Shown here: one piece after another, positions 1,112 through 51,085 of the stretch | Layout: each line of letters begins with the position of its first letter | Numbering within the stretch: position 1 is the stretch's first letter | Virus record (IMG/VR): IMGVR_UViG_3300031746_000001 | Reading direction: 5' to 3' (one strand) | DNA from: a virus | Length of the DNA: 64,000 nt | The notes under the pieces: model-generated | Databases searched by the model: none | Told to the model about the DNA's origin: nothing | The model's input: the letters and a program-made list of their open reading frames with translations, nothing else | Translations under genes and position numbers: made by a program

Positions 1112-4100
1112 TTAGAGATATTCAACCAAAATCGTTCCATTCCAGTTCTCATTACGCTTGTCAGAAAATGAATAAGTGGTCGAAAAGACCGATTGCACGG
1201 AACCATTCTTGTGAACTTCAAGAACGGTATCCGACATCCCGACATAATTGATATAACAAGATATTTCATCCCCCTCAACAAAGTAGACGGGAGCGACATT
1301 CTTTATCGCTGTCGTTTCCCCGGTAGTAGACCCCCTGAACTGGCATCCGATAATCCTACCCGGAGAAAGCATCTGAACTGAATACTGATTTCCCACTTCA
1401 GTTCCGGCAGAGAAGTATCTACTTGACACACTCGCCGCAGTTCCAAGAGATAAGTGGTCTATGTTCTTTAGACCGTGTGCTCCAACAACCCCAATCCAAT
1501 CAAAGCTGATTCCTACGACAGTATCGCCCGAGAACACATGAACAGGCAACCAGACATTCGCTGGAATATGAGTCGTATGCGAAGCAACCAACTGACCATT
1601 GACATATAGACGACAGACATTTGGGTCCCATTGAATTTCAATCAGATTCCAAGTTCTGGCCGGGATAGCAACGGCTGTCTGTGTTACCGTCCCGTCGTAA
1701 GTTTCAAAGTTTCCGTCGTTATACCGGACATAATAGGATCCGCCGGAATCCCAAAAACCAACAGCGTTTCTGAACACACCAGACCTATCATAATCATCCT
1801 TAACGAACATAGACAATCTACCATACAGCCATGTTCTCTTCGTATACATCTCGCCATAAGAACCTCCGGCGTTCAGAATACTTATCATACTGGACGCAAC
1901 AGAATAGGTTGCACTTGCACCAACCTTAGTCCAGACATTCGTATCAAGGGCATTACCATCAAAATGGTCGATAAAACCCGGAAATCCTTCATAACTAATT
2001 ACCGGAGTTTCTATCGGAGCAATTTCAGAGAACTCAATGTCTGGATGTAGTCTTGTAGCAATATTATCAAGCAACACACCATAATACCCACCCATCGCAG
2101 TAGCATAGGCGGCAGTCGTTCCCCTCCAATAAAATTTCCCGTCACAATAAACATCGAACACATTAACTTTACTTCCGAGACTATTATACAAATAAACTTC
2201 AAGAGTATGCCATTCCCCTGTAGTCAATGTGACTGTAAAGACGCCATCTGTCAAACTACCATAACTTCCGGCATTATCATATCCTACCGTTAGATTAGCT
2301 CCCGACCCTGTGTAATACCAGAATAATCCATGAGCGGTAGCATGATTAAGAGCATCAAACCCAAAACATATCCCGTAGTTATCCGTAGAAGCATTCGGCT
2401 TGAACTTCATCCGAATACGAAGTCCACCGGATGCATTTGCATTGAGAGGAGCCTGACAAAGATAGAATCTTTCACCGGCTGTTCTCGCTACAGGAGCATA
2501 CCATCCGGCAGTATCACTTACCAGATACTCCGCATTTGTGTAGTTTCTATACAAAGCAGGAGAAGGATAACCACTATATCCCGACGCCCCACTGGCACCA
2601 GAGGCCCCTGAGGCGCCTGAAGCACCAGAAAGTCCAGATGCCCCCGTGAACCCACTGAATCCGGAGTACCCTGATAGGCCACTTGCCCCGCTAGCTCCAC
2701 TGGCGCCTGAAGCTCCTCCTGCTCCGGACAGCCCGCTGAAGCCGGATCGTCCGCTGTATCCTGAGTACCCCGACTGACCACTAGCGCCTGAAGCTCCTCC
2801 TGCTCCGGACAGCCCGGAGGCACCCGTGAATCCCGAGAAGCCAGAATATCCAGAGAGTCCGGAAGCTCCACTTGCTCCCGAAAGTCCGGATGCGCCAGTA
2901 GCCCCGGTAAATCCAGAGAAGCCGGAGTAACCTGAAAGACCAGACGCCCCGCTGGCGCCACTCGCTCCGCTGGCTCCCGAAAGCCCTGTAAATCCCGAGA
3001 ACCCGGAATATCCACTTAGACCTGAAGCACCAGACGCACCGCTCGCGCCGGAAGCCCCGCTGAGTCCTGTGAACCCACTGAAACCCGAGTAGCCGCTTAG
3101 TCCGGATGCACCACTTGCGCCTGAAAGTCCCGAAGCCCCTGAAGCTCCGGACAGGCCACTGGCTCCGGTGAAGCCGGAGAAACCCGAGTAACCGGAGAGG
3201 CCAGATGCCCCAGACGCTCCACTAGCCCCACTCGCTCCTGACAAGCCCGTGAACCCGCTGAAGCCGGAGTAACCCGATTGGCCACTAGCTCCGCTCGCCC
3301 CACTAGCCCCGCTGAGACCTGATGCCCCAGTAAATCCCGAAAAGCCGCTATAACCTGACAGTCCACTTGCCCCGGACGCGCCGGAAAGTCCGCTGGCCCC
3401 ACTGGCTCCCGTAAATCCGCTGAAACCTGAGTAGCCACTTTGTCCGGAGGCTCCCGACGCTCCGCTGGCACCGGAAAGACCGGAAGCTCCGCTGGCACCG
3501 GAAAACCCGCTGAGACCGCTATACCCAGACTGACCGGATGCTCCGCTCGCACCACTGGCTCCGCTAAGACCCGAGGCTCCGGACAGCCCTGTGAAGCCGG
3601 AAAATCCCGAGTAGCCGGAAAGTCCAGACGCCCCACTGGCACCGCTGAGCCCAGAGGCTCCCGAAGCTCCGGTGAAACCAGAGAATCCAGAGTACCCGCT
3701 CTGACCGCTGGCTCCACTCGCTCCCGAAGCCCCACTGAGTCCGGAAGCACCAGTGAAGCCAGAAAATCCGGAATATCCGGATTGTCCGCTGGCCCCGCTT
3801 GCTCCCGATGCCCCACTAAGCCCAGAGGCGCCGGTAAAACCACTGAACCCGGAGTACCCGCTTAATCCGCTGGCTCCCGATGCTCCTGAGAGTCCCGATG
3901 CTCCCGATGCGCCTGAGGCGCCAGAGAGTCCAGAAAAGCCAGAGAGTCCGCTATAGCCTGATTGTCCAACAGCCCCGGACGCTCCGCTCGCGCCGGACGC
4001 TCCCGAGAGTCCGGTAAAGCCGCTGAAGCCCGAGTAACCGGATTGGCCGCTGGCGCCGGATGCTCCCGAGGCTCCTGAGAGGCCACTAGCCCCAGTGAAT

Positions 4101-7100
4101 CCCGAAAAGCCTGAGTATCCACTTTGACCGGAAGCTCCGGAAGCACCGGAGGCGCCGGAAAGTCCCGAAGCCCCCGTAAATCCACTGAATCCGCTATACC
4201 CGCTCTGTCCGCTAGCTCCGGAAGCACCACTGGCACCAGAGGCTCCTGAAAGTCCGGAAGCTCCACTAAGCCCTGTGAAGCCGCTGAATCCGGAATAACC
4301 CGATAGACCAGAGGCCCCAGAAGCTCCGCTGGCACCACTAGCTCCGGATGCCCCAGTGAACCCACTGAACCCGGAGTAACCACTGAGGCCGCTGGCACCT
4401 AAAGCTCCACTTGCTCCACTTGCCCCGCTAAGTCCGCTAAACCCGCTGAAGCCGGAGTAGCCGCTTTGACCAGACGCCCCGCTGGCGCCAGAAGTTCCGC
4501 TAAGACCGGAAGCCCCGGTAAATCCCGAGAATCCGGAATACCCGCTGAGCCCGCTGGCTCCACTAAGGCCGCTGGCACCGGAAGCTCCTGAAGCCCCGAC
4601 AGCTCCCGAGAATCCGGAGAGCCCGGAATAACCAGACTGTCCCGAGGCGCCGGAAGTTCCGCTAAGCCCCGACGCTCCCGAAGCTCCGGTAAAGCCCGAG
4701 AAGCCAGAATATCCCGACTGCCCACTCGCTCCGCTGGCGCCGGACGCTCCACTGAGACCACTTTGTCCCGTGAAGCCAGAGAATCCTGAATAACCACTCT
4801 GTCCGCTGGCCCCACTGGCTCCGGAGGCGCCACTCGTTCCAGATAACCCCGAAAATCCGCTGTAACCACTTTGTCCGGAAGCTCCACTTGCTCCGGACGC
4901 ACCAGACGCTCCAACCGCCCCGCTGAATCCGCTAAGACCGCTGTAGCCTGAGAGTCCAGAGGCACCCGAAGATCCACTCGCACCTGAGGCTCCGGACGCT
5001 CCGGATGCTCCGGTGAAACCAGAGAATCCAGAGTACCCGCTCTGACCGCTGGCTCCAGATGCTCCACTCGCACCAGAAAGACCTGATTGCCCGATCGCAC
5101 CGCTGAACCCACTAAATCCTGAATAACCAGACGCGCCTGAAAGTCCCACCGCTCCAGAAAGACCACTGATACCTGAGTACCCACTTTGTCCACTCTCTCC
5201 CGAGGCCCCCGATGCTCCTGAAGTTCCGCTGAGTCCCGATGCTCCGGTGAATCCGGAGAATCCGGAGTAGCCCGATAGTCCCGATGCTCCGGATGCGCCG
5301 GAGGCCCCTGAGGCGCCTGAAGCACCAGTGAAACCAGAAAACCCGCTGTAGCCACTTTGTCCAGATGCCCCAGACGCGCCTGAAGCACCCGAAGCGCCAG
5401 AAAGACCTGTAAAGCCCGAGAACCCGGAATAACCGGACTGTCCGGACGCCCCGCTCGCTCCCGATAGACCAGACGCACCGCTTAGTCCACTGGCCCCGGA
5501 CAAACCCGTGAAGCCTGAAAAACCAGAATATCCGGACTGCCCTGAAGCACCAGACGCACCGCTCGCGCCTGACGCTCCGGATAGGCCGGAAAATCCTGAG
5601 AAGCCCGAATAACCCGACTGACCGCTGGCACCCGAAGCTCCACTGGCTCCCGAAAGACCCGAGGCTCCCGAAGCCCCGGATTGTCCCGTGAACCCACTGA
5701 AACCAGAATAACCGGACTGACCGGATGATCCTACGAAGGACTCTCCGGAAAACCCGCTAAGACCTGAGTAACCAGACTGGCCGGATGCGCCGGAAGCCCC
5801 GCTGGCTCCTGAAGATCCACTGGCACCTGTGAATCCGGAAAATCCGCTATAACCGGATTGACCGCTAGCTCCCGAGGTTCCCGAGGCGCCGGACGCTCCC
5901 GAGGCTCCACTCAGCCCGGAGAATCCGCTGAACCCTGAATATCCTGATTGACCGCTTGCCCCGCTTGCTCCGGAAGCTCCTCCGGCGCCGGAGGCTCCCG
6001 TGAAACCTGAGAAACCGCTGTAGCCGGATGCTCCCGATGTTCCCGACGCACCTGACGCGCCAGAAAGTCCAGAAAGTCCCGAGTAGCCCGACTGGCCAGA
6101 AGCACCCGAAAGACCACTAGCTCCGGATGCCCCTTCTGCTCCGGATTGTCCGCTGAATCCGGAGAAACCAGAGTAACCAGAAGCACCTGAAGTTCCAGAT
6201 GCTCCTGAGGCTCCTGAAGCTCCGCTAGCACCCGAGAGCCCGGTGAATCCAGAGAACCCAGAATACCCAGACTGACCGCTGGCCCCAGATGCACCAGATG
6301 CTCCTGAAGTCCCAGATAGTCCACTGAGACCTGAGAGACCGCTGTAGCCTGATTGTCCCGATGCACCCGAAGTTCCACTTGCACCTGACGCCCCGGATTC
6401 TCCGCTGAACCCGCTGAATCCGGAATACCCCGACTGTCCTGATTGGCCTGATGCACCACTCGCTCCACTCTGCCCTGATGCTCCTGTGAACCCGGAAAAC
6501 CCGCTGTAACCCGATTGTCCCGAGGCTCCGCTGGTCCCGGAGGCACCAGACGCCCCGGACTCCCCCGTGAACCCCGAGAACCCCGAGTATCCCGACTGGC
6601 CGGAGGCTCCACTGGCACCCGATGCTCCGGATAGGCCGGAAGCCCCAGTAAAGCCGGAAAAGCCGGAATACCCGCTCTGCCCACTCGCGCCTGACGTTCC
6701 TGACCCCCCAGAAGCCCCAGAAAGGCCACTCTGGCCTGAGAACCCGCTGGCTCCCGAGTAACCGGACTCCCCTGACGTCCCGGATGCACCTGAGGCCCCT
6801 GAGGCGCCTGACAGGCCGGAGGCCCCGGACTCCCCCGAGAATCCTGAGAACCCGCTGTAACCGCTGGCCCCCGATACCCCCGTAGCCTCCCCACTGAACC
6901 CCGAGAATCCCGAGTAACCCGACGCTCCACTGGGCCCCGACCCTCCCGATTCTCCGCTGTAACCAGAAAGGCCGGAATAACCGGACGCTCCGGTCCCTCC
7001 CGCCCCACTGAAGGTGATCGTCTGGCCGTCCTGGGTAACGTCGACACCGCTATACCCCTGAAAGAGAACATTCCCGGTTGCGGGAGGAGGCGCAATAGGA

Positions 7101-7315
7101 GAAACAAGCCCGATCGAGTGGACCCCCTCGTGGACGTGATCCCTCCGGCTGACCTGTCTCTCATCTCCGGAATAGCCGGACTGACCGACAGGCTCCGGGA
7201 GTCCCCGCCCGTAGATCTCGTTATTCAGGTGCCAGCTAAATACGGAAGACGGAAGAGATTTCGATATGCCATCCGGGCTCTTCCGTTCTCCGCGAATGTC
7301 TCGTGGATCAGCCAT
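1112..7315 (-). CDS. Giant Gly-X-Ser repeat (collagen-like) fibre protein with C-terminal beta-sandwich/lectin-like domains
   Basis: 2067 aa: about 100-aa N-terminus (SRRDHVH motif), about 1480 aa of Gly-every-third-residue repeat, and about 480-aa C-terminus with two ConA/LamG-like segments (WHTLEVY...FDVYCDGK; DHFDGNALDTNVW...WNLIEIQW...LYVNGQLVASH). Confidence 0.8.
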   Translation of the reverse strand: MADPRDIRGERKSPDGISKSLPSSVFSWHLNNEIYGRGLPEPVGQSGYSGDERQVSRRDHVHEGVHSIGLVSPIAPPPATGNVLFQGYSGVDVTQDGQTITFSGAGGTGASGYSGLSGYSGESGGSGPSGASGYSGFSGFSGEATGVSGASGYSGFSGFSGESGASGLSGASGASGASGTSGESGYSGASGFSGQSGLSGASGGSGTSGASGQSGYSGFSGFTGASGLSGASGASGASGQSGYSGFSGFTGESGASGASGTSGASGQSGYSGFSGFTGASGQSGASGASGQSGQSGYSGFSGFSGESGASGASGTSGASGQSGYSGLSGLSGLSGTSGASGASGASGQSGYSGFSGFTGLSGASGASGASGASGTSGASGYSGFSGFSGQSGAEGASGASGLSGASGQSGYSGLSGLSGASGASGTSGASGYSGFSGFTGASGAGGASGASGASGQSGYSGFSGFSGLSGASGASGASGTSGASGQSGYSGFSGFTGASGSSGASGASGASGQSGYSGLSGFSGESFVGSSGQSGYSGFSGFTGQSGASGASGLSGASGASGASGQSGYSGFSGFSGLSGASGASGASGASGQSGYSGFSGFTGLSGASGLSGASGLSGASGASGQSGYSGFSGFTGLSGASGASGASGASGQSGYSGFSGFTGASGASGASGASGASGLSGYSGFSGFTGASGLSGTSGASGASGESGQSGYSGISGLSGAVGLSGASGYSGFSGFSGAIGQSGLSGASGASGASGQSGYSGFSGFTGASGASGASGASGSSGASGLSGYSGLSGFSGAVGASGASGASGASGQSGYSGFSGLSGTSGASGASGASGQSGYSGFSGFTGQSGLSGASGASGASGQSGYSGFSGFTGASGASGLSGTSGASGQSGYSGLSGFSGAVGASGASGASGLSGASGLSGYSGFSGFTGASGLSGTSGASGASGQSGYSGFSGFSGLSGASGASGALGASGLSGYSGFSGFTGASGASGASGASGASGLSGYSGFSGFTGLSGASGLSGASGASGASGASGQSGYSGFSGFTGASGLSGASGASGASGQSGYSGFSGFTGASGLSGASGASGASGQSGYSGFSGFTGLSGASGASGASGAVGQSGYSGLSGFSGLSGASGASGASGLSGASGASGLSGYSGFSGFTGASGLSGASGASGASGQSGYSGFSGFTGASGLSGASGASGASGQSGYSGFSGFTGASGASGLSGASGASGLSGYSGFSGFTGLSGASGLSGASGASGASGQSGYSGLSGFSGASGASGLSGASGASGASGQSGYSGFSGFTGASGASGLSGASGASGLSGYSGFSGFTGASGLSGASGASGASGQSGYSGFSGFTGLSGASGASGASGASGLSGYSGFSGFTGASGLSGASGASGLSGASGASGLSGYSGFSGFTGLSGASGASGASGASGLSGYSGFSGFTGLSGASGASGASGASGLSGYSGFSGFTGATGASGLSGASGASGLSGYSGFSGFTGASGLSGAGGASGASGQSGYSGYSGRSGFSGLSGAGGASGASGASGASGLSGYSGFSGFTGASGLSGASGASGASGASGASGYSGYPSPALYRNYTNAEYLVSDTAGWYAPVARTAGERFYLCQAPLNANASGGLRIRMKFKPNASTDNYGICFGFDALNHATAHGLFWYYTGSGANLTVGYDNAGSYGSLTDGVFTVTLTTGEWHTLEVYLYNSLGSKVNVFDVYCDGKFYWRGTTAAYATAMGGYYGVLLDNIATRLHPDIEFSEIAPIETPVISYEGFPGFIDHFDGNALDTNVWTKVGASATYSVASSMISILNAGGSYGEMYTKRTWLYGRLSMFVKDDYDRSGVFRNAVGFWDSGGSYYVRYNDGNFETYDGTVTQTAVAIPARTWNLIEIQWDPNVCRLYVNGQLVASHTTHIPANVWLPVHVFSGDTVVGISFDWIGVVGAHGLKNIDHLSLGTAASVSSRYFSAGTEVGNQYSVQMLSPGRIIGCQFRGSTTGETTAIKNVAPVYFVEGDEISCYINYVGMSDTVLEVHKNGSVQSVFSTTYSFSDKRNENWNGTILVEYL
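2570..7006 (-). repeat. Coding 9-bp-period repeat, about 490 Gly-X-Ser/Thr triplets, with a higher-order unit (SGA/L/Q)n-SGY-SGF-SGF-TG
   Basis: Visible in the translation. One register break noticed (GESFVG, near 5730). Synonymous codons are strongly shuffled, with occasional exact DNA duplicates (e.g. 2703-2735 vs 2784-2816). Confidence 0.95.
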
Positions 7316-37164: not shown

Positions 37165-37569
37165 TCATACCACCAGCGTCTTGTCCCCGTTCTCGCTAGA
37201 AACGATCCTACGAACGTCTTCCAGAAACGCATTCGGTTTGAACGCCGGAGTCCCCTTCGTGATGAACTTCCGAATGCCCATTAAAAGGCTTCGCTTCTCG
37301 GGCTTGAGATCGGCCTCCTTTAAGGCCGTCAGAACAATCACCGGCACGTTTCTCATCTCATCGTCCCGCTTCATCTGCTCGAACACTGTGAACCCGTCCA
37401 TATCCGGCATCATAAGGTCCAAAACTACGAGCTGTGGTTTGATCTCCCTGATCTTCTGCAATCCCGACACCCCTCCATCCGCCAGAGCTACAGTATACCC
37501 GTTATGCTCGAGGAGGTCTTTCAGCATCTCCCTAACGAACATGTTGTCGTCCACGATTAGGATACTCAT
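37165..37569 (-). CDS. Single-domain response regulator (CheY-like receiver)
   Basis: ILIVDD, LVVLDLMMPDMDGF (phosphoacceptor Asp), VPVIVLTA and FITK are all present; no output domain. Confidence 0.92.
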   Translation of the reverse strand: MSILIVDDNMFVREMLKDLLEHNGYTVALADGGVSGLQKIREIKPQLVVLDLMMPDMDGFTVFEQMKRDDEMRNVPVIVLTALKEADLKPEKRSLLMGIRKFITKGTPAFKPNAFLEDVRRIVSSENGDKTLVV

Positions 37570-37983
37570 TCATTGTAGCTTTTCAAGCCTGCGGTCAATA
37601 CTCACCATCCGTTCAGCGATTACTCCATGTTGCGATACAGCAGTAGCCAGAGCCTCGTCCTGCTTTCTTTGGTGAGCTAGGCACCCCTCCTCTCTTCGGT
37701 TTATGCTATCAACCAAAGACTGCAAAACCCTCGTATTCTCTATCGTCACTGCTCGGTAGTCCGAAGTTACTCTTTCCAGGGAGGCCAGAAACTTCTCGGT
37801 CAACGACTTCCTTTCCTCGGTAGCCTTATTGCTCTGATCAGTTTTATCTTCGATCAGCTTGTTGAGCGTCCTCATCGCGAACCAGAGAGCCCCGATGATG
37901 ACGACGATGGAAACGACGGTCAGAGCTCCGTATTTCGATACCGCCTCCCAGAAAGCCGGGCTGAACGGGCCGAAGGAATTCAT
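37570..37983 (-). CDS. Single-TM coiled-coil membrane protein (holin/antiholin-like)
   Basis: YGALTVVSIVVIIGALWFAM TM segment followed by a long coiled coil. Confidence 0.55.
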   Translation of the reverse strand: MNSFGPFSPAFWEAVSKYGALTVVSIVVIIGALWFAMRTLNKLIEDKTDQSNKATEERKSLTEKFLASLERVTSDYRAVTIENTRVLQSLVDSINRREEGCLAHQRKQDEALATAVSQHGVIAERMVSIDRRLEKLQ

Positions 37984-39003: not shown

Positions 39004-39531
39004 TTACCCGACGCTGAGCTCCATCCACTCGAAGGCGAGGTCGATGGATTCCACGGAGATCTCTCCGGACGTGGCGTCGAAGTCCGACGCCAGCTTGCAA
39101 CGGATCGGGAAGGCCTCGTGAAGCTTGATCCTCCGGTTGGCCGATCCCGTGTTAACCTGCCAAGGGTCCGGATGCTGGGCGTCGCTCTTCCAGTCATCCC
39201 GGTGGAAGTGGAAGATGACCAGATCGGTACGGTAGTCCTGGCCGTTGATCTTCTTCACGATCCAGTCATAGAACCCGTTGTTGCTCTTCACCACGCCCCG
39301 CTCGAGGGAGCAGTCCGTGACCGTCGTGTTCCCGGGGTACTTCCTCTCCATCCTCCAAATGCCTTCCTTGTAGGTCACTGCGTCCGTGTTGAACTCCGGG
39401 AAAGAGCATGTCCGGAATCCGCCGTGTGGCTCCTTGAAGGCGTTCTTGATATACGCCGGGGCCCCTTCGTCGCAGGTTACGTGGAAGCGATATGCTTGGA
39501 GGAAGTCTGTTACCTGTGCTCTTGCACCCAT
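39004..39531 (-). CDS. Tail tube protein 1 (T4 gp19 / Afp-like)
   Basis: D.LQAYRFHV, GGF..CS.PE.....YKEG....KYPG......LERGV....FYDW, YR.DL.I, EAFP....SDFDATSGEISVESIDLAFE. Confidence 0.92.
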   Translation of the reverse strand: MGARAQVTDFLQAYRFHVTCDEGAPAYIKNAFKEPHGGFRTCSFPEFNTDAVTYKEGIWRMERKYPGNTTVTDCSLERGVVKSNNGFYDWIVKKINGQDYRTDLVIFHFHRDDWKSDAQHPDPWQVNTGSANRRIKLHEAFPIRCKLASDFDATSGEISVESIDLAFEWMELSVG

Positions 39532-39543
39532 GTTTAAGTCCTC

Positions 39544-39720
39544 CTATTGATCTTCACGTTCATCGTCATCATCGGGAGTAGGAACGCGCCGTACCATAAC
39601 AATCGGAAACGGTGGAACCCCCATGTGCGGGGCAACGTTCCCTGTCGTCGTGGCGCTCTCTACCGGAGTCCACTCCGCAGGGCCACCGTCCGGCTTCTGT
39701 GCGGCGCGTCCCTTATCCAT
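39544..39720 (-). CDS. Small 58-aa protein, missed by the ORF track
   Basis: Read by hand: AGGTG RBS, MDKGRAAQKPDGGPAEWTPVESATTTGNVAPHMGVPPFPIVMVRRVPTPDDDDEREDQ; its stop overlaps the tube-gene RBS. Confidence 0.6.
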   Translation of the reverse strand: MDKGRAAQKPDGGPAEWTPVESATTTGNVAPHMGVPPFPIVMVRRVPTPDDDDEREDQ

Positions 39721-39727
39721 GATTCAC

Positions 39728-39769
39728 CTATTGGGCCTTCGTCGTCTTCTGCATGAACTGGAACACGAC
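39728..39769 (-). pseudogene. Displaced duplicate of the tail sheath 3' end (VVFQFMQKTTKAQ-stop)
   Basis: Encodes the same 13 residues plus stop as 40563..40604, but 12 of 14 codons differ synonymously. Confidence 0.9.
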
Positions 39770-40560
39770 TACGCGGCCCACTTGTAGCCGTAAAAAGGTT
39801 GAATCTCATTTGGACAACAACCAATGTAAGACAGGAAACTATTCGTCGAAGAATCTGAAATTCCTATCACATTGTTTGACTTCTGCCGAGAAGCTTTAAA
39901 TCCTAAATTATGGATTTTCCTAACGAGCAACTCGACATCATCAACAGAAAAACCCTGCGTAGACAATAGTATTTTGCGACGGCGTCCTCCTGGACGGTGA
40001 AGCAAGTATCCGTCTCCGATATACCACTGTCTTACAACCAGAGGTTTTAAGTCGACATCCAAAGGAACGATCTTTCTTCCGTTGTCGTAAAACATTTTGT
40101 GCAATGAGAGTAGCTCGGGATACCTCAGAGATGCATAGTGATGAACTACACTTATGGCTCCACTTTTCCAGACCGTTCTGGTCTTTTGTATTTTCCCAGA
40201 TCGATACAGTCCGAAGCCTCTGAAGGTCTTGTCCAACCATTGGATATACCCCAGGTGCTTAGAACCACTCTGAAATCTTGCCGATCTCTCATTATCGGAG
40301 TGAAGATGCCCATCTCCCAGAAGCTCTCCGACCAAAAATTGAATCGCTTCTTCCGAGAGGCTAACGTGTTTCTCTCTTGTAAGATAGATAGCGTCCGCAC
40401 ACGACCTTCTTGGGATGCCAAACTTCACCATCCACATTTGAATGGCGTTGCTGGTCACCCCAAGATCGACCGCGATTTGATGGAGAGACTTCCTGCCCGA
40501 TACGTATTGGCTCCGAAGCCAATCTTCAGTCATCCATTTATAGAGCGGACGCCGATCCAT
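39769..40560 (-). mobile_element. Free-standing LAGLIDADG homing endonuclease with N-terminal HTH
   Basis: SLHQIAVDLGVTSNAIQMWM (HTH), FLVGELLGDGHL and RQWYIGDGY motifs, GRKIVP, LSTQGF; AT-rich relative to the sheath gene. Confidence 0.9.
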
Positions 40561-40562
40561 TC

Positions 40563-42134
40563 TTACTGAGCCTTGGTTGTTTTTTGCATAAATTGAAAGA
40601 CCACGAACTCGGCTGGTCTCTGCGGTGCGATCCCCACCTTGATATAGAGGAATCCGGCCTCCACAGCCTCCGATGGGTTGTTGGTCTCGTCGCAGACCAC
40701 GAAGAAGGCTTCCTCCGGGGTATTCCCTGCGAAGTAGCCCTCGTTGTAGTGGAACAACAGGAAGCTCTCCATCTGGAGCTTGGCCTTCAGCCGGGTCCCG
40801 GCGTCGTTATTCTCGAACACGATCCAGTGCGTGGCATCGAACGTGCTCTTCTCGAGGTACTGGAAAGTCCGCACGACCGACACGTAACGCCACAGGGTAT
40901 CGAGGGAACCCGTCCGGGCGCCCCAGACACAGCGGCCCGTCTGAGGGGTGCTGATCAGGGGGTTGATCCGTGCGGGGTAAATCAGATCCCGCTCGGCCTT
41001 CGTCAGCGTCCGCTCGAGATCGATGATCCCGGACAATGCCCCATCCGTGATCCCGGCAGGCGCCTTCGCCACGTTCCGGTTGTTGTCCGTCGCGGCATAG
41101 ACCCCGGCGACCAGCCCGACGTTCGGGAACAGCTTCGGCCTGCCGAGGTTGAGCGGGTCCTGAATCTTCACCCAGGGATAGTAGACGGCATACCGCTGGG
41201 AGTTCTTGTTGAGGGTCGTCCGCATGAACGTCAGGGAGTCCTGCGGAGAAAGCCCGCTCGGGGTCTGGCAGATGGCGAAGACATACTTGCGGTAGTCGGC
41301 GTAGTCGATCAACGCCCCCTGCACTGCCGCCGCTGTCGCGCCATCGGTATACCACATCTGGTCCGGAGCCACGAGCATGAACATCTCGTCGATGCTGTTG
41401 AGGCTTGCGAGAGCCCCGGACTGCGATGTCCCCCAGATGGCCTGGGTGGGCGCCGTCCCCTCCGTTCCGCCCGAGCAGGACGTTCCGGAAGGAAGCGCCG
41501 CGGGCACTCCACCGATCCCCTTCTCCACCCAGATGAAGTTCGACCCGGCGTTGATCACCTCCGGGAAATACTGCGGAGAAGCGGCATCGACGAAGTCGAC
41601 TGCTGTGAACGCCTCGACCTGCAAGACCTCCGAGGCTGGGGCGTCCTGGTAGAACACAGCCACGTCATACTTGAGCGGGCTGTAGTCCTCGTTCGGGGTG
41701 ACCGTGATCACGATCCGGTTGCCCCACTTCCCGGGCTCCTTGAGAGTGGTCTTCCCGTACCACTTCCCAGCCCAGATCGTCCACTCGTTGGACGGGGTGA
41801 CGTGCTTGGCTGTTATGGCGTCCGCTCCGACCAGCCGGGCGATATAAGCCCGCAGACCGCCCTTGTTGAAGAACATGGCCACCGACTGGGGCAGGTCGAA
41901 GAACTCGTAGACCGTGCCGCCGTCGGTGTAGCGGTTCATTCTGCCGAACTTGGTCTCGTAGTCGGCATAGCCCGTGATGAACAACGGGTACGGAGCGTTG
42001 CTGATAAGAGCGTCGACCGGGCCCCGCTCAGCGATACCAGGGAACACGCAGGTGGACGTCCCGACACCAGCTATCGCCCTGGCGCCTTCGCTCTTTTCCT
42101 GGATATAGATTCCAGGCGACAGATATTCGGGCAT
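40563..42134 (-). CDS. Contractile tail sheath protein
   Basis: MPEYLSPGIYIQE, GIAERGP, FFNKGG.RAYIAR, YAVYYPWVK, VAKAPAG, RINPL, VWGART, WRYVSVVR, WIVFENN, AFFVVCDETNN, GIAPQRPAEFVVF. Confidence 0.97.
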   Translation of the reverse strand: MPEYLSPGIYIQEKSEGARAIAGVGTSTCVFPGIAERGPVDALISNAPYPLFITGYADYETKFGRMNRYTDGGTVYEFFDLPQSVAMFFNKGGLRAYIARLVGADAITAKHVTPSNEWTIWAGKWYGKTTLKEPGKWGNRIVITVTPNEDYSPLKYDVAVFYQDAPASEVLQVEAFTAVDFVDAASPQYFPEVINAGSNFIWVEKGIGGVPAALPSGTSCSGGTEGTAPTQAIWGTSQSGALASLNSIDEMFMLVAPDQMWYTDGATAAAVQGALIDYADYRKYVFAICQTPSGLSPQDSLTFMRTTLNKNSQRYAVYYPWVKIQDPLNLGRPKLFPNVGLVAGVYAATDNNRNVAKAPAGITDGALSGIIDLERTLTKAERDLIYPARINPLISTPQTGRCVWGARTGSLDTLWRYVSVVRTFQYLEKSTFDATHWIVFENNDAGTRLKAKLQMESFLLFHYNEGYFAGNTPEEAFFVVCDETNNPSEAVEAGFLYIKVGIAPQRPAEFVVFQFMQKTTKAQ

Positions 42135-49939: not shown

Positions 49940-51085
49940 TCAGTCCTCCTTGTGGTGCGGTTTGTCGCCCCGGCTTTTCATCCAGTAGGAGTTATGCGAG
50001 AAAACCCCTGCGGATATGGCGAACGTATGAATTCCCTTAACAGCGACATCATACATCGGAATGATGGTATCGAGAAAATCGATCTTAACTATAAAGTGGT
50101 TCTGAGCCTCTCGAGCTTCCCGGGCCCTTCGCTTTCCTTCGCCGACCTTTTTCCCATGATCCGAACCATAGTTTCTCCGAAGATTTGCCTGCCTAATCTT
50201 CTCTATCGCATCCGCAGACTGAGAAGTTCCGAACGGACGACCGCCAAGCAAACCACTCCTGTAAGACTGATCCCTGAGAAGTCCCGACCGACGTTCTCGC
50301 TCTTCGGGAGACATTTCGGCCCATTGCTTCAACGTAGTCTCTTTGGACTTTTTCGTATGCAACCTTCTGAATTCCGGGTCCGATCTCCACTTTTTATCCC
50401 ACGCTAACCGCATCGCCTGAACCTTGTCCTTTCCATGATGCTTATTATGGAAATCCCGCAACATCCAAACTAAGTTTTCAGGGCGGTTATCTCGAGGGTC
50501 TTCATTGAGATGGTGCCCGACATGCTCGGCGGAGGGACAGCCTAAACCCATCTCCCGCATTACAGCCCAATGCGTAAGGCCATAGCACCCGAGGCCGGGA
50601 TGGTAAACCATCTCATGCCCCACAATTCCACGAGCCATTCTTGATTTTGACACACTGCTTGTCGTCCTGAATGGCATCAGAGAATCATCTACGTTCAGAG
50701 CCTTCGTTTCGACGAAAGACCCATCACGTTTGACCCAGCGGTGCTCCGGAGAACAGGTTAGAATCTCACCGTTATCAAGCGCAATTTCCACGGCAGGACG
50801 CACCCCGACATACTTTACCCGGGCAAGACCGGGAACGACTATCCCTGTCGGGTCAACGGAGTAAAGCCAGAACTCGGCATTAGCCTCTGCAAGTGCATGC
50901 AGTGACCTGATTTTTCCGTCCAAACATGGAACCTCCGTATCACCTCCTAGACACAAAGCGAAGGGGTTGTCGATGTCCTTGTGCTTCTTCATCGCCCGGA
51001 CGGTCCCGCCCCAGCCCGGGGGAGACACGTTCACGAGCTTGAAGCTCTGCGAGAGATCGACGACGGCGGTCAATAATTCCTTCAT
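49940..51085 (-). CDS. Leader-bearing 60-aa protein interrupted by an intein
   Basis: N-extein MKELLTAVVDL...VSPPGWGGTVRAMKKHKDIDNPFAL (44 aa); C-extein SYWMKSRGDKPHHKED (16 aa). Confidence 0.85.
   Translation of the reverse strand: MKELLTAVVDLSQSFKLVNVSPPGWGGTVRAMKKHKDIDNPFALCLGGDTEVPCLDGKIRSLHALAEANAEFWLYSVDPTGIVVPGLARVKYVGVRPAVEIALDNGEILTCSPEHRWVKRDGSFVETKALNVDDSLMPFRTTSSVSKSRMARGIVGHEMVYHPGLGCYGLTHWAVMREMGLGCPSAEHVGHHLNEDPRDNRPENLVWMLRDFHNKHHGKDKVQAMRLAWDKKWRSDPEFRRLHTKKSKETTLKQWAEMSPEERERRSGLLRDQSYRSGLLGGRPFGTSQSADAIEKIRQANLRRNYGSDHGKKVGEGKRRAREAREAQNHFIVKIDFLDTIIPMYDVAVKGIHTFAISAGVFSHNSYWMKSRGDKPHHKED
49991..50953 (-). mobile_element. Intein with HNH endonuclease
   Basis: Begins CLGGDTEVPCLDG; block B LDNGEILTCSPEHRW; HNH motif HHLNEDPRDNRPENL......HNKHH; ends MYDVAV.GIHTFAISAGVFSHN followed by +1 Ser. 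Confidence 0.93.

Follow-up and report, generated by a model that had tools for sequence, protein, structure and literature searches.

The tail sheath locus of the viral DNA examined here, a window of 64,000 nt, very probably houses a homing element that has no intron and substitutes its own version of the target gene's 3' end. An 835-bp insertion after codon 510 of the sheath gene carries a synonymous version of the gene end together with an intact LAGLIDADG endonuclease gene, and the native end of the sheath gene has been pushed downstream. Judged from sequence, the nuclease is predicted to cut at the junction interrupted by the insertion, the recoded end (the patch) may render the filled allele immune, and the recoding would act to destroy the target or to limit excision. 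The locus is a real and unusually well-documented phage variant of a known selfish strategy.

All features of the locus lie on the minus strand, in the order sheath gene, 2-nt gap, nuclease gene, second 42-nt copy of the sheath end, a 58-aa gene and the tail tube gene. The sheath gene (40563-42134; 523 aa; Pfam PF04984/PF17482, Phage_sheath_1/1C), whose product is 91% identical to the sheath of the relative L003, is a hybrid of host codons 1-510 and 14 final codons supplied by the element. The element itself (39768-40602), delimited by the joints in runs X6 and X7 and by blastn with L003, comprises the patch (40563-40604; 13 codons plus stop, synonymous with the displaced end), a 2-nt spacer and the gene of a free-standing double-motif LAGLIDADG endonuclease (39769-40560; 263 aa; PF03161, LAGLIDADG_2, E 1e-21); a 2-nt GT ambiguity at its limits makes 39770-40604 also possible. 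The displaced original 3' end (39728-39769) is joined to no long ORF and is identical to the coding end of L003 at 41 of 42 nt. The flank outside the element contains the 58-aa gene (39544-39720), which is open in both L003 and the second relative, L072, and the tail tube gene (39004-39531; PF06841). In empty alleles the 58-aa gene directly follows the sheath gene; 25 of 37 differences in it occupy third codon positions, and it had neither a prior gene call nor a PHROG match. An assembly artifact is ruled out, because JGI contig L070 is identical to the window over 3900 nt and five further Logan/ENA records show the same gene order.

The overlap of the downstream copy with the nuclease stop, described earlier from the letters of the window, amounts to one shared base: the final G of the nuclease TAG also opens the copy. 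The TAG of the stranded end is in turn part of AGGTGA, a Shine-Dalgarno-like site of the 58-aa gene. A GTG occurs 2 nt past the nuclease stop (39766-39728, minus strand), the same spacing as at the nuclease start; it has no good ribosome site, and it could allow translation to resume and yield a 12-residue peptide from the stranded end, which would keep the coupling to the 58-aa gene. The last codons of the nuclease, GCC GCG TA-G (39770-39778), resemble sheath codons GCC GAG TTC (40605-40613) at 6 of 7 bases on the minus strand with a 1-nt shift. The initial breakpoint may have lain three codons earlier, with the remnant mutated into the nuclease stop, although chance is also possible. Elsewhere in the window, the tail operon includes genes for a stand-alone response-regulator receiver and for a small membrane protein (37165-37983, minus strand), an arrangement also present in the relative. 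A 2067-aa ORF (1112-7315, minus strand) has very high GC2 and a long repeat with a 9-nt period and is collagen-like by composition, and a 381-aa ORF (49940-51085, minus strand) has a GC3 of 0.58, below that of its neighbors.

The two copies of the sheath end were located on the minus strand at 40604-40563 and 39769-39728, as the sequence-only reading had placed them. As first noticed, they encode the same 13 residues and a stop and differ in 12 of 14 codons; 30 of 42 nt match, and the only codons in common are those of Met and the second Lys. The longest identical run between them is 5 nt. Among the matches listed in a window-wide scan, this is the only stop-to-stop peptide duplication with 12/12 identity. 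The proposed contrast in codon style stood in one half: the downstream copy is sheath-like (GC3 12/13, against 410/491, or 0.83, in the sheath body), whereas the supposedly AT-rich patch is only moderately so (GC3 5/13, or 0.38, against 116/252 in the nuclease). The patch nevertheless ties for the lowest GC3 among all 14-codon windows of the sheath gene. The one Lys codon left without respelling is taken in by the AAGG that precedes the nuclease start. When the two junctions of the split target were compared with the empty 22-mer, they showed 4 and 6 mismatches, and nothing in the window was closer; these mismatches are suggestive of, and would fit, immunity of the patch to the nuclease.

Natural empty alleles link the downstream copy to the ancestral gene end. 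Two relatives with sheaths about 91% identical to that of the window lack the element. One of them is a complete 160-kb genome (L003; G001), collinear on both sides, in which the nuclease is absent and no LAGLIDADG_2 match was found. The sheath gene of this genome finishes with the downstream codons (41/42 nt) and continues into the same intergenic DNA. In L072, the second empty allele, the downstream spelling occurs at 10/10 recodable codons that specify the same residue, and the patch spelling at 0/10. It had been predicted that relatives without the endonuclease would end their sheath genes in the downstream codons; this is the case in L003 (with L073 and L074) and L072. Empty alleles ending in the upstream AT-rich codons, the outcome named at the time as contrary, were checked for, and L003 and L072 show the opposite.

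The reconstructed empty junction also occurs in nature. A joint that skips exactly 835 nt (39768-40602) was detected in run X7, of the L003 type, and in run X6, which belongs to a separate study. The X6 contig is short and shallow (151 nt, depth 2.4), and it matches the window with zero mismatches over 59 nt upstream and 92 nt downstream, across the junction. Foreign sequence thus begins at codon 511 and not before, because the X6 joint matches the window up to that point; recoding that reaches upstream of codon 511 was considered and rejected, since X6 is identical to the window over 40603-40661. A contig of run X5 (40603-40886) starts exactly at breakpoint 40603, with other pieces of that run covering the nuclease gene; this hints weakly at the coexistence of empty and filled alleles within one sample. 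Annotated phages offer only distant relatives, with nuclease identities of 33% or less and best-covered sheath matches of about 30%.

Signs of spread come from comparisons among filled alleles. A single contig of run X4 covers the whole stretch and carries the filled allele with 32 substitutions and 3 gaps relative to the window. These differences are confined to positions up to 39734 and from 40626 onward; the 891 nt in between, element included, contain none. Rates in the flanks predict 14-20 SNPs for those 891 nt, and the next longest SNP-free gap measures 240 nt; the corresponding Poisson probability (1e-6 to 3e-9) overstates the case, since SNPs cluster in recombination tracts, and the comparison of diversity between element and flanks is based on few contigs. 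Variation resumes 23 nt from the upstream end of the element and 34 nt from its downstream end. Furthermore, contigs with as many as 6 residue differences between their sheaths encode a nuclease protein without a single change. The filled alleles of X4 and X5 differ inside the stranded end at the synonymous position 39734, a polymorphism that is expected because the stranded end would be taken from each recipient. An identical element in two divergent backgrounds is the pattern expected of homing with short co-conversion; a single insertion followed by recombination of the flanks could produce the same SNP pattern.

In the predicted enzyme, both LAGLIDADG motifs are intact and retain their catalytic residues (D83 and D183), which are invariant among 51 homologues and align with the catalytic motifs of I-SceI. 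The structure model (pLDDT 94.8) has I-SceI and I-WcaI as its closest folds, with I-SceI (1r7m) as the best Foldseek match (E 7e-14, TM 0.65/0.76). Taken together, sequence and model identify the protein as a double-motif LAGLIDADG homing endonuclease of PF03161 that is I-SceI-like and predicted to cleave a long site in the empty allele. I-SceI and I-WcaI are its best matches in both sequence and fold, with both catalytic motifs aligned; however, they are intron-encoded, are only about 20% identical to it and lack its N-terminal helical domain of about 60 aa. This HTH-like domain (approximately aa 8-60) resembles the HTH domains of phage HNH nucleases. The nuclease gene starts 2 nt past the patch stop, with a weak AAGG 10 nt upstream. 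As initially supposed, the locus holds neither an intron nor an intein: the sheath stops before the nuclease starts, each with its own stop or start, an Rfam search gave no match at E 1, and the 835 bp hold no spare sequence.

In the proposed mechanism, the nuclease would be produced from the late tail transcript and coupled translationally to the sheath stop. Such late expression is suggested because no promoter-like site was found in 39400-40800 (terminator-like matches being at chance level), the spacing is 2 nt and the AAGG is weak. During mixed infection, the nuclease would cut the empty allele near the Glu-Phe/Val-Val junction, a target site deduced from the breakpoint. Repair of the break on a filled genome would use the sheath body as homology on one side and the stranded old end with the intergenic DNA on the other, and the recipient would retain a full-length sheath. 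Division of the target between two junctions, which carry 4 and 6 mismatches per 22 nt, would probably make it immune. A mismatch at almost every third base should also slow recombinational loss of the element. The old end looks fresh, in this scheme, because each homing event would renew it from the recipient.

Explanations diverge on how the patch acquired its spelling. One possibility, to which we give an even chance, is that the patch started out as the sheath end of this same lineage. Selection acting on the element would then have made its synonymous sites diverge, close to the cut for self-immunity and farther away for resistance to excision, with the protein kept constant by selection on the sheath. 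The patch differs from the downstream copy at 12 of 13 recodable codons and from L003 at 13 of 13 with zero amino-acid changes, whereas synonymous codons across the sheath body differ at only 12-19%, with a maximum of 7 differences in any 14-codon window. Moreover, a variable tail has been kept exactly: L072 has TASAK where the window has TTKAQ, and among 115 more distant sheaths none exceeds 8/13 identity. Four of the 12 patch changes, three G/C transversions and one A to G (two against L003), are not towards A/T and run contrary to AT drift. Under full randomization of codons, the probability of 13/13 against L003 is at most 0.007 at any tested GC3. Against the window's own old end, however, the probability of at least 12/13 is only 0.02-0.04 at GC3 0.38-0.46 and rises to 0.2-0.4 for a very AT-rich source; a Fisher test against the sheath C-terminal domain gives P 0.08, the locus was chosen for its cleanness out of very many windows, and the element's own nuclease would have cut a duplicate that was exact at the outset. 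A foreign resistant allele is therefore nearly as likely, because randomized codons give 12/13 at P 0.02-0.04, the locus was picked and the duplicate would not be immune. On this second explanation, the nuclease gene was first located downstream of the sheath stop in a diverged relative of lower GC content and, on invading, brought the sheath end of that relative with it, which would solve the start-up immunity problem. A comparable origin has been argued for Allomyces and Glomus; in the latter, the inserted ends are 64-81% identical in DNA while 94-100% protein identity is reported for the C-termini (PMC3630166). The GC3 of the patch (0.38) resembles that of the nuclease (0.46), and other cases in the nuclease family show amino-acid changes between copies. 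Against it, a donor whose synonymous sites are saturated should also have diverged in the variable tail, and no donor was found in IMG/VR or JGI metagenomes: a degenerate peptide pattern matched only the L003 contig in IMG/VR and nothing in the JGI metagenomes, a scan that missed known carriers and is thus weak, and further alleles were likewise absent from the degenerate-pattern scans of these two collections. Recoding in place by positive selection on synonymous sites, which would make the locus a natural 'recoded-rescue' homing drive in a phage and one member of a broader phage HTH-LAGLIDADG class replacing 3' or 5' gene ends, is put forward tentatively. If true, the element pushes every wobble base off the host spelling, both for immunity and against recombining out.

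Two further explanations were weighed. The nuclease may be free-standing and either cut some other gene or be inactive, the duplication being a one-off scar of illegitimate recombination that was spread by ordinary recombination. This is improbable, even though T4 seg/mob nucleases often cut far from their own genes and the majority of family loci have no duplication, for the breakpoint comes immediately after the best-conserved motif of the sheath end, which reads PAEF in most homologues, variation begins again just 23 and 34 nt from the element, the ORF and active sites are intact, and a scar leaves the fully synonymous, element-borne end without explanation. It is far less credible still that the downstream copy continues to serve as the coding end, brought into place by splicing of the RNA, by ribosomal bypass or by a phase switch through DNA excision. 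That copy is indeed undamaged and keeps the codon usage of the host, and the X6 empty contig could in principle represent an excision product; however, the upstream copy already finishes the protein with a stop, no Rfam match was obtained, and the X6 joint falls exactly at the ancestral L003/L072 breakpoint rather than at a random point in the repeat.

Replacement of a gene end probably extends beyond this window to other members of the nuclease family, which is large (228 clusters at E 1e-30 or better). A duplicated gene end was detected at approximately 5 distinct loci among 89 other testable ones, where the criterion was a score at or above the 99th percentile of a shuffled-pair null and several scores were marginal. 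Because only about 5 of 89 loci show one, a duplicated end is not a fixed trait of the family, and these comparisons point to end replacement as a recurring but minority habit. Diverged duplicate 3' ends, with amino-acid changes between copies, flank family nucleases in L089 (2393-2470 and 3593-3670), L075 (2366-2416 and 3249-3290; the stranded end overlaps the last nuclease codons) and L186 (2253-2315 and 3290-3343; an endolysin-like peptidase gene). L116 (122-172 and from 975) and the group of L119, L120 (1176-1283 and from 2160), L122 and L125 look like 5' cases, in which the nuclease is preceded by a truncated gene start and followed by a complete gene whose start has diverged. No significant duplicated end was found at L001 or at P0002, the locus of the closest nuclease homologue (47%), which lies behind a Mu_F head gene. 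High duplication scores at L137, L139, L103 and L104 were traced to internal nuclease repeats rather than gene ends and were discarded. By eye, the nuclease of L002 apparently lies inside an interrupted reductase-like gene.

Among phage systems, the T4 seg and mob nucleases are mostly encoded by GIY-YIG or HNH genes located between genes, with immunity provided by natural divergence of the whole target. To our knowledge, these free-standing phage nucleases carry no duplicate gene end. T4 SegB (PMC2330249) and the other seg/mob genes share with the present element that they are phage-encoded, lack an intron or intein and spread in mixed infection. A published phage case of the present layout was not found by title or abstract in a limited search.

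The layout and the proposed mechanism have parallels in eukaryotes. The comparison with 3'-end replacement by organellar endonucleases, already drawn in the sequence-only reading, proved apt: mobile ORFs of fungal mitochondria have the same layout and make gene hybrids in Allomyces macrogynus (atp6) and Glomus (atp6, atp9, cox2 and nad3) (PMC3630166). They share with the phage locus an inserted C-terminus, a LAGLIDADG ORF, a displaced native C-terminus that matches uninvaded relatives, and DNA divergence far above protein divergence. However, they are mitochondrial, have inserts of 51-238 bp and are in some cases in frame with the nuclease, whereas the phage replacement spans 14 codons, is fully synonymous and is documented by empty and filled alleles in near-identical backgrounds. 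WHO elements at FBA1 of Torulaspora and Lachancea, for which the homing model has experimental support (Coughlan et al. 2020, PMC7282813), likewise have an intron-less nuclease gene, with a complete gene whose 3' end has been exchanged on one side and a stranded piece of the former end on the other. In both systems the element would consist of a resistant 3' end plus a nuclease, with the stranded fragment acting as a homology arm. WHO proteins, which are intein-like fusions with zinc fingers, are encoded in a eukaryotic nuclear genome, where the fragments measure about 400 bp and the clusters are stacked; by contrast, the phage locus has an I-SceI-like protein with an HTH-like domain and predicted cleavage, a 42-bp end and one copy in a structural gene. 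The phage element shows the 3'-end-replacement layout common to mobile ORFs and WHO elements, namely an intact gene with an inserted end, a nuclease and a displaced native end. It would work like a WHO element but is not a member of that family in the strict sense, because its 263-aa protein consists of HTH-like and LAGLIDADG_2 parts only, with no intein or zinc-finger part, and its target is the sheath gene rather than FBA1. The synthetic Cleave and Rescue design (PMC6442612), a drive with recoded rescue, also links a nuclease to a recoded, protein-identical version of its target; the phage element is natural, would home into the cut site and rescues only the last 14 codons.

The locus illustrates a way for a homing nuclease to enter an essential phage gene with no need of a splicing element, as has been published for yeasts and fungal mitochondria. 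It also yields an I-SceI-like nuclease with a predictable target and forms a compact test case, in which the empty junction has been located to the nucleotide and 0.9 kb accommodates target, patch and enzyme, allowing one to ask which synonymous changes confer immunity and which guard against excision. Empty alleles that are known exactly, indications of recent spread and synonymous recoding of nearly every codon make it a good experimental model.
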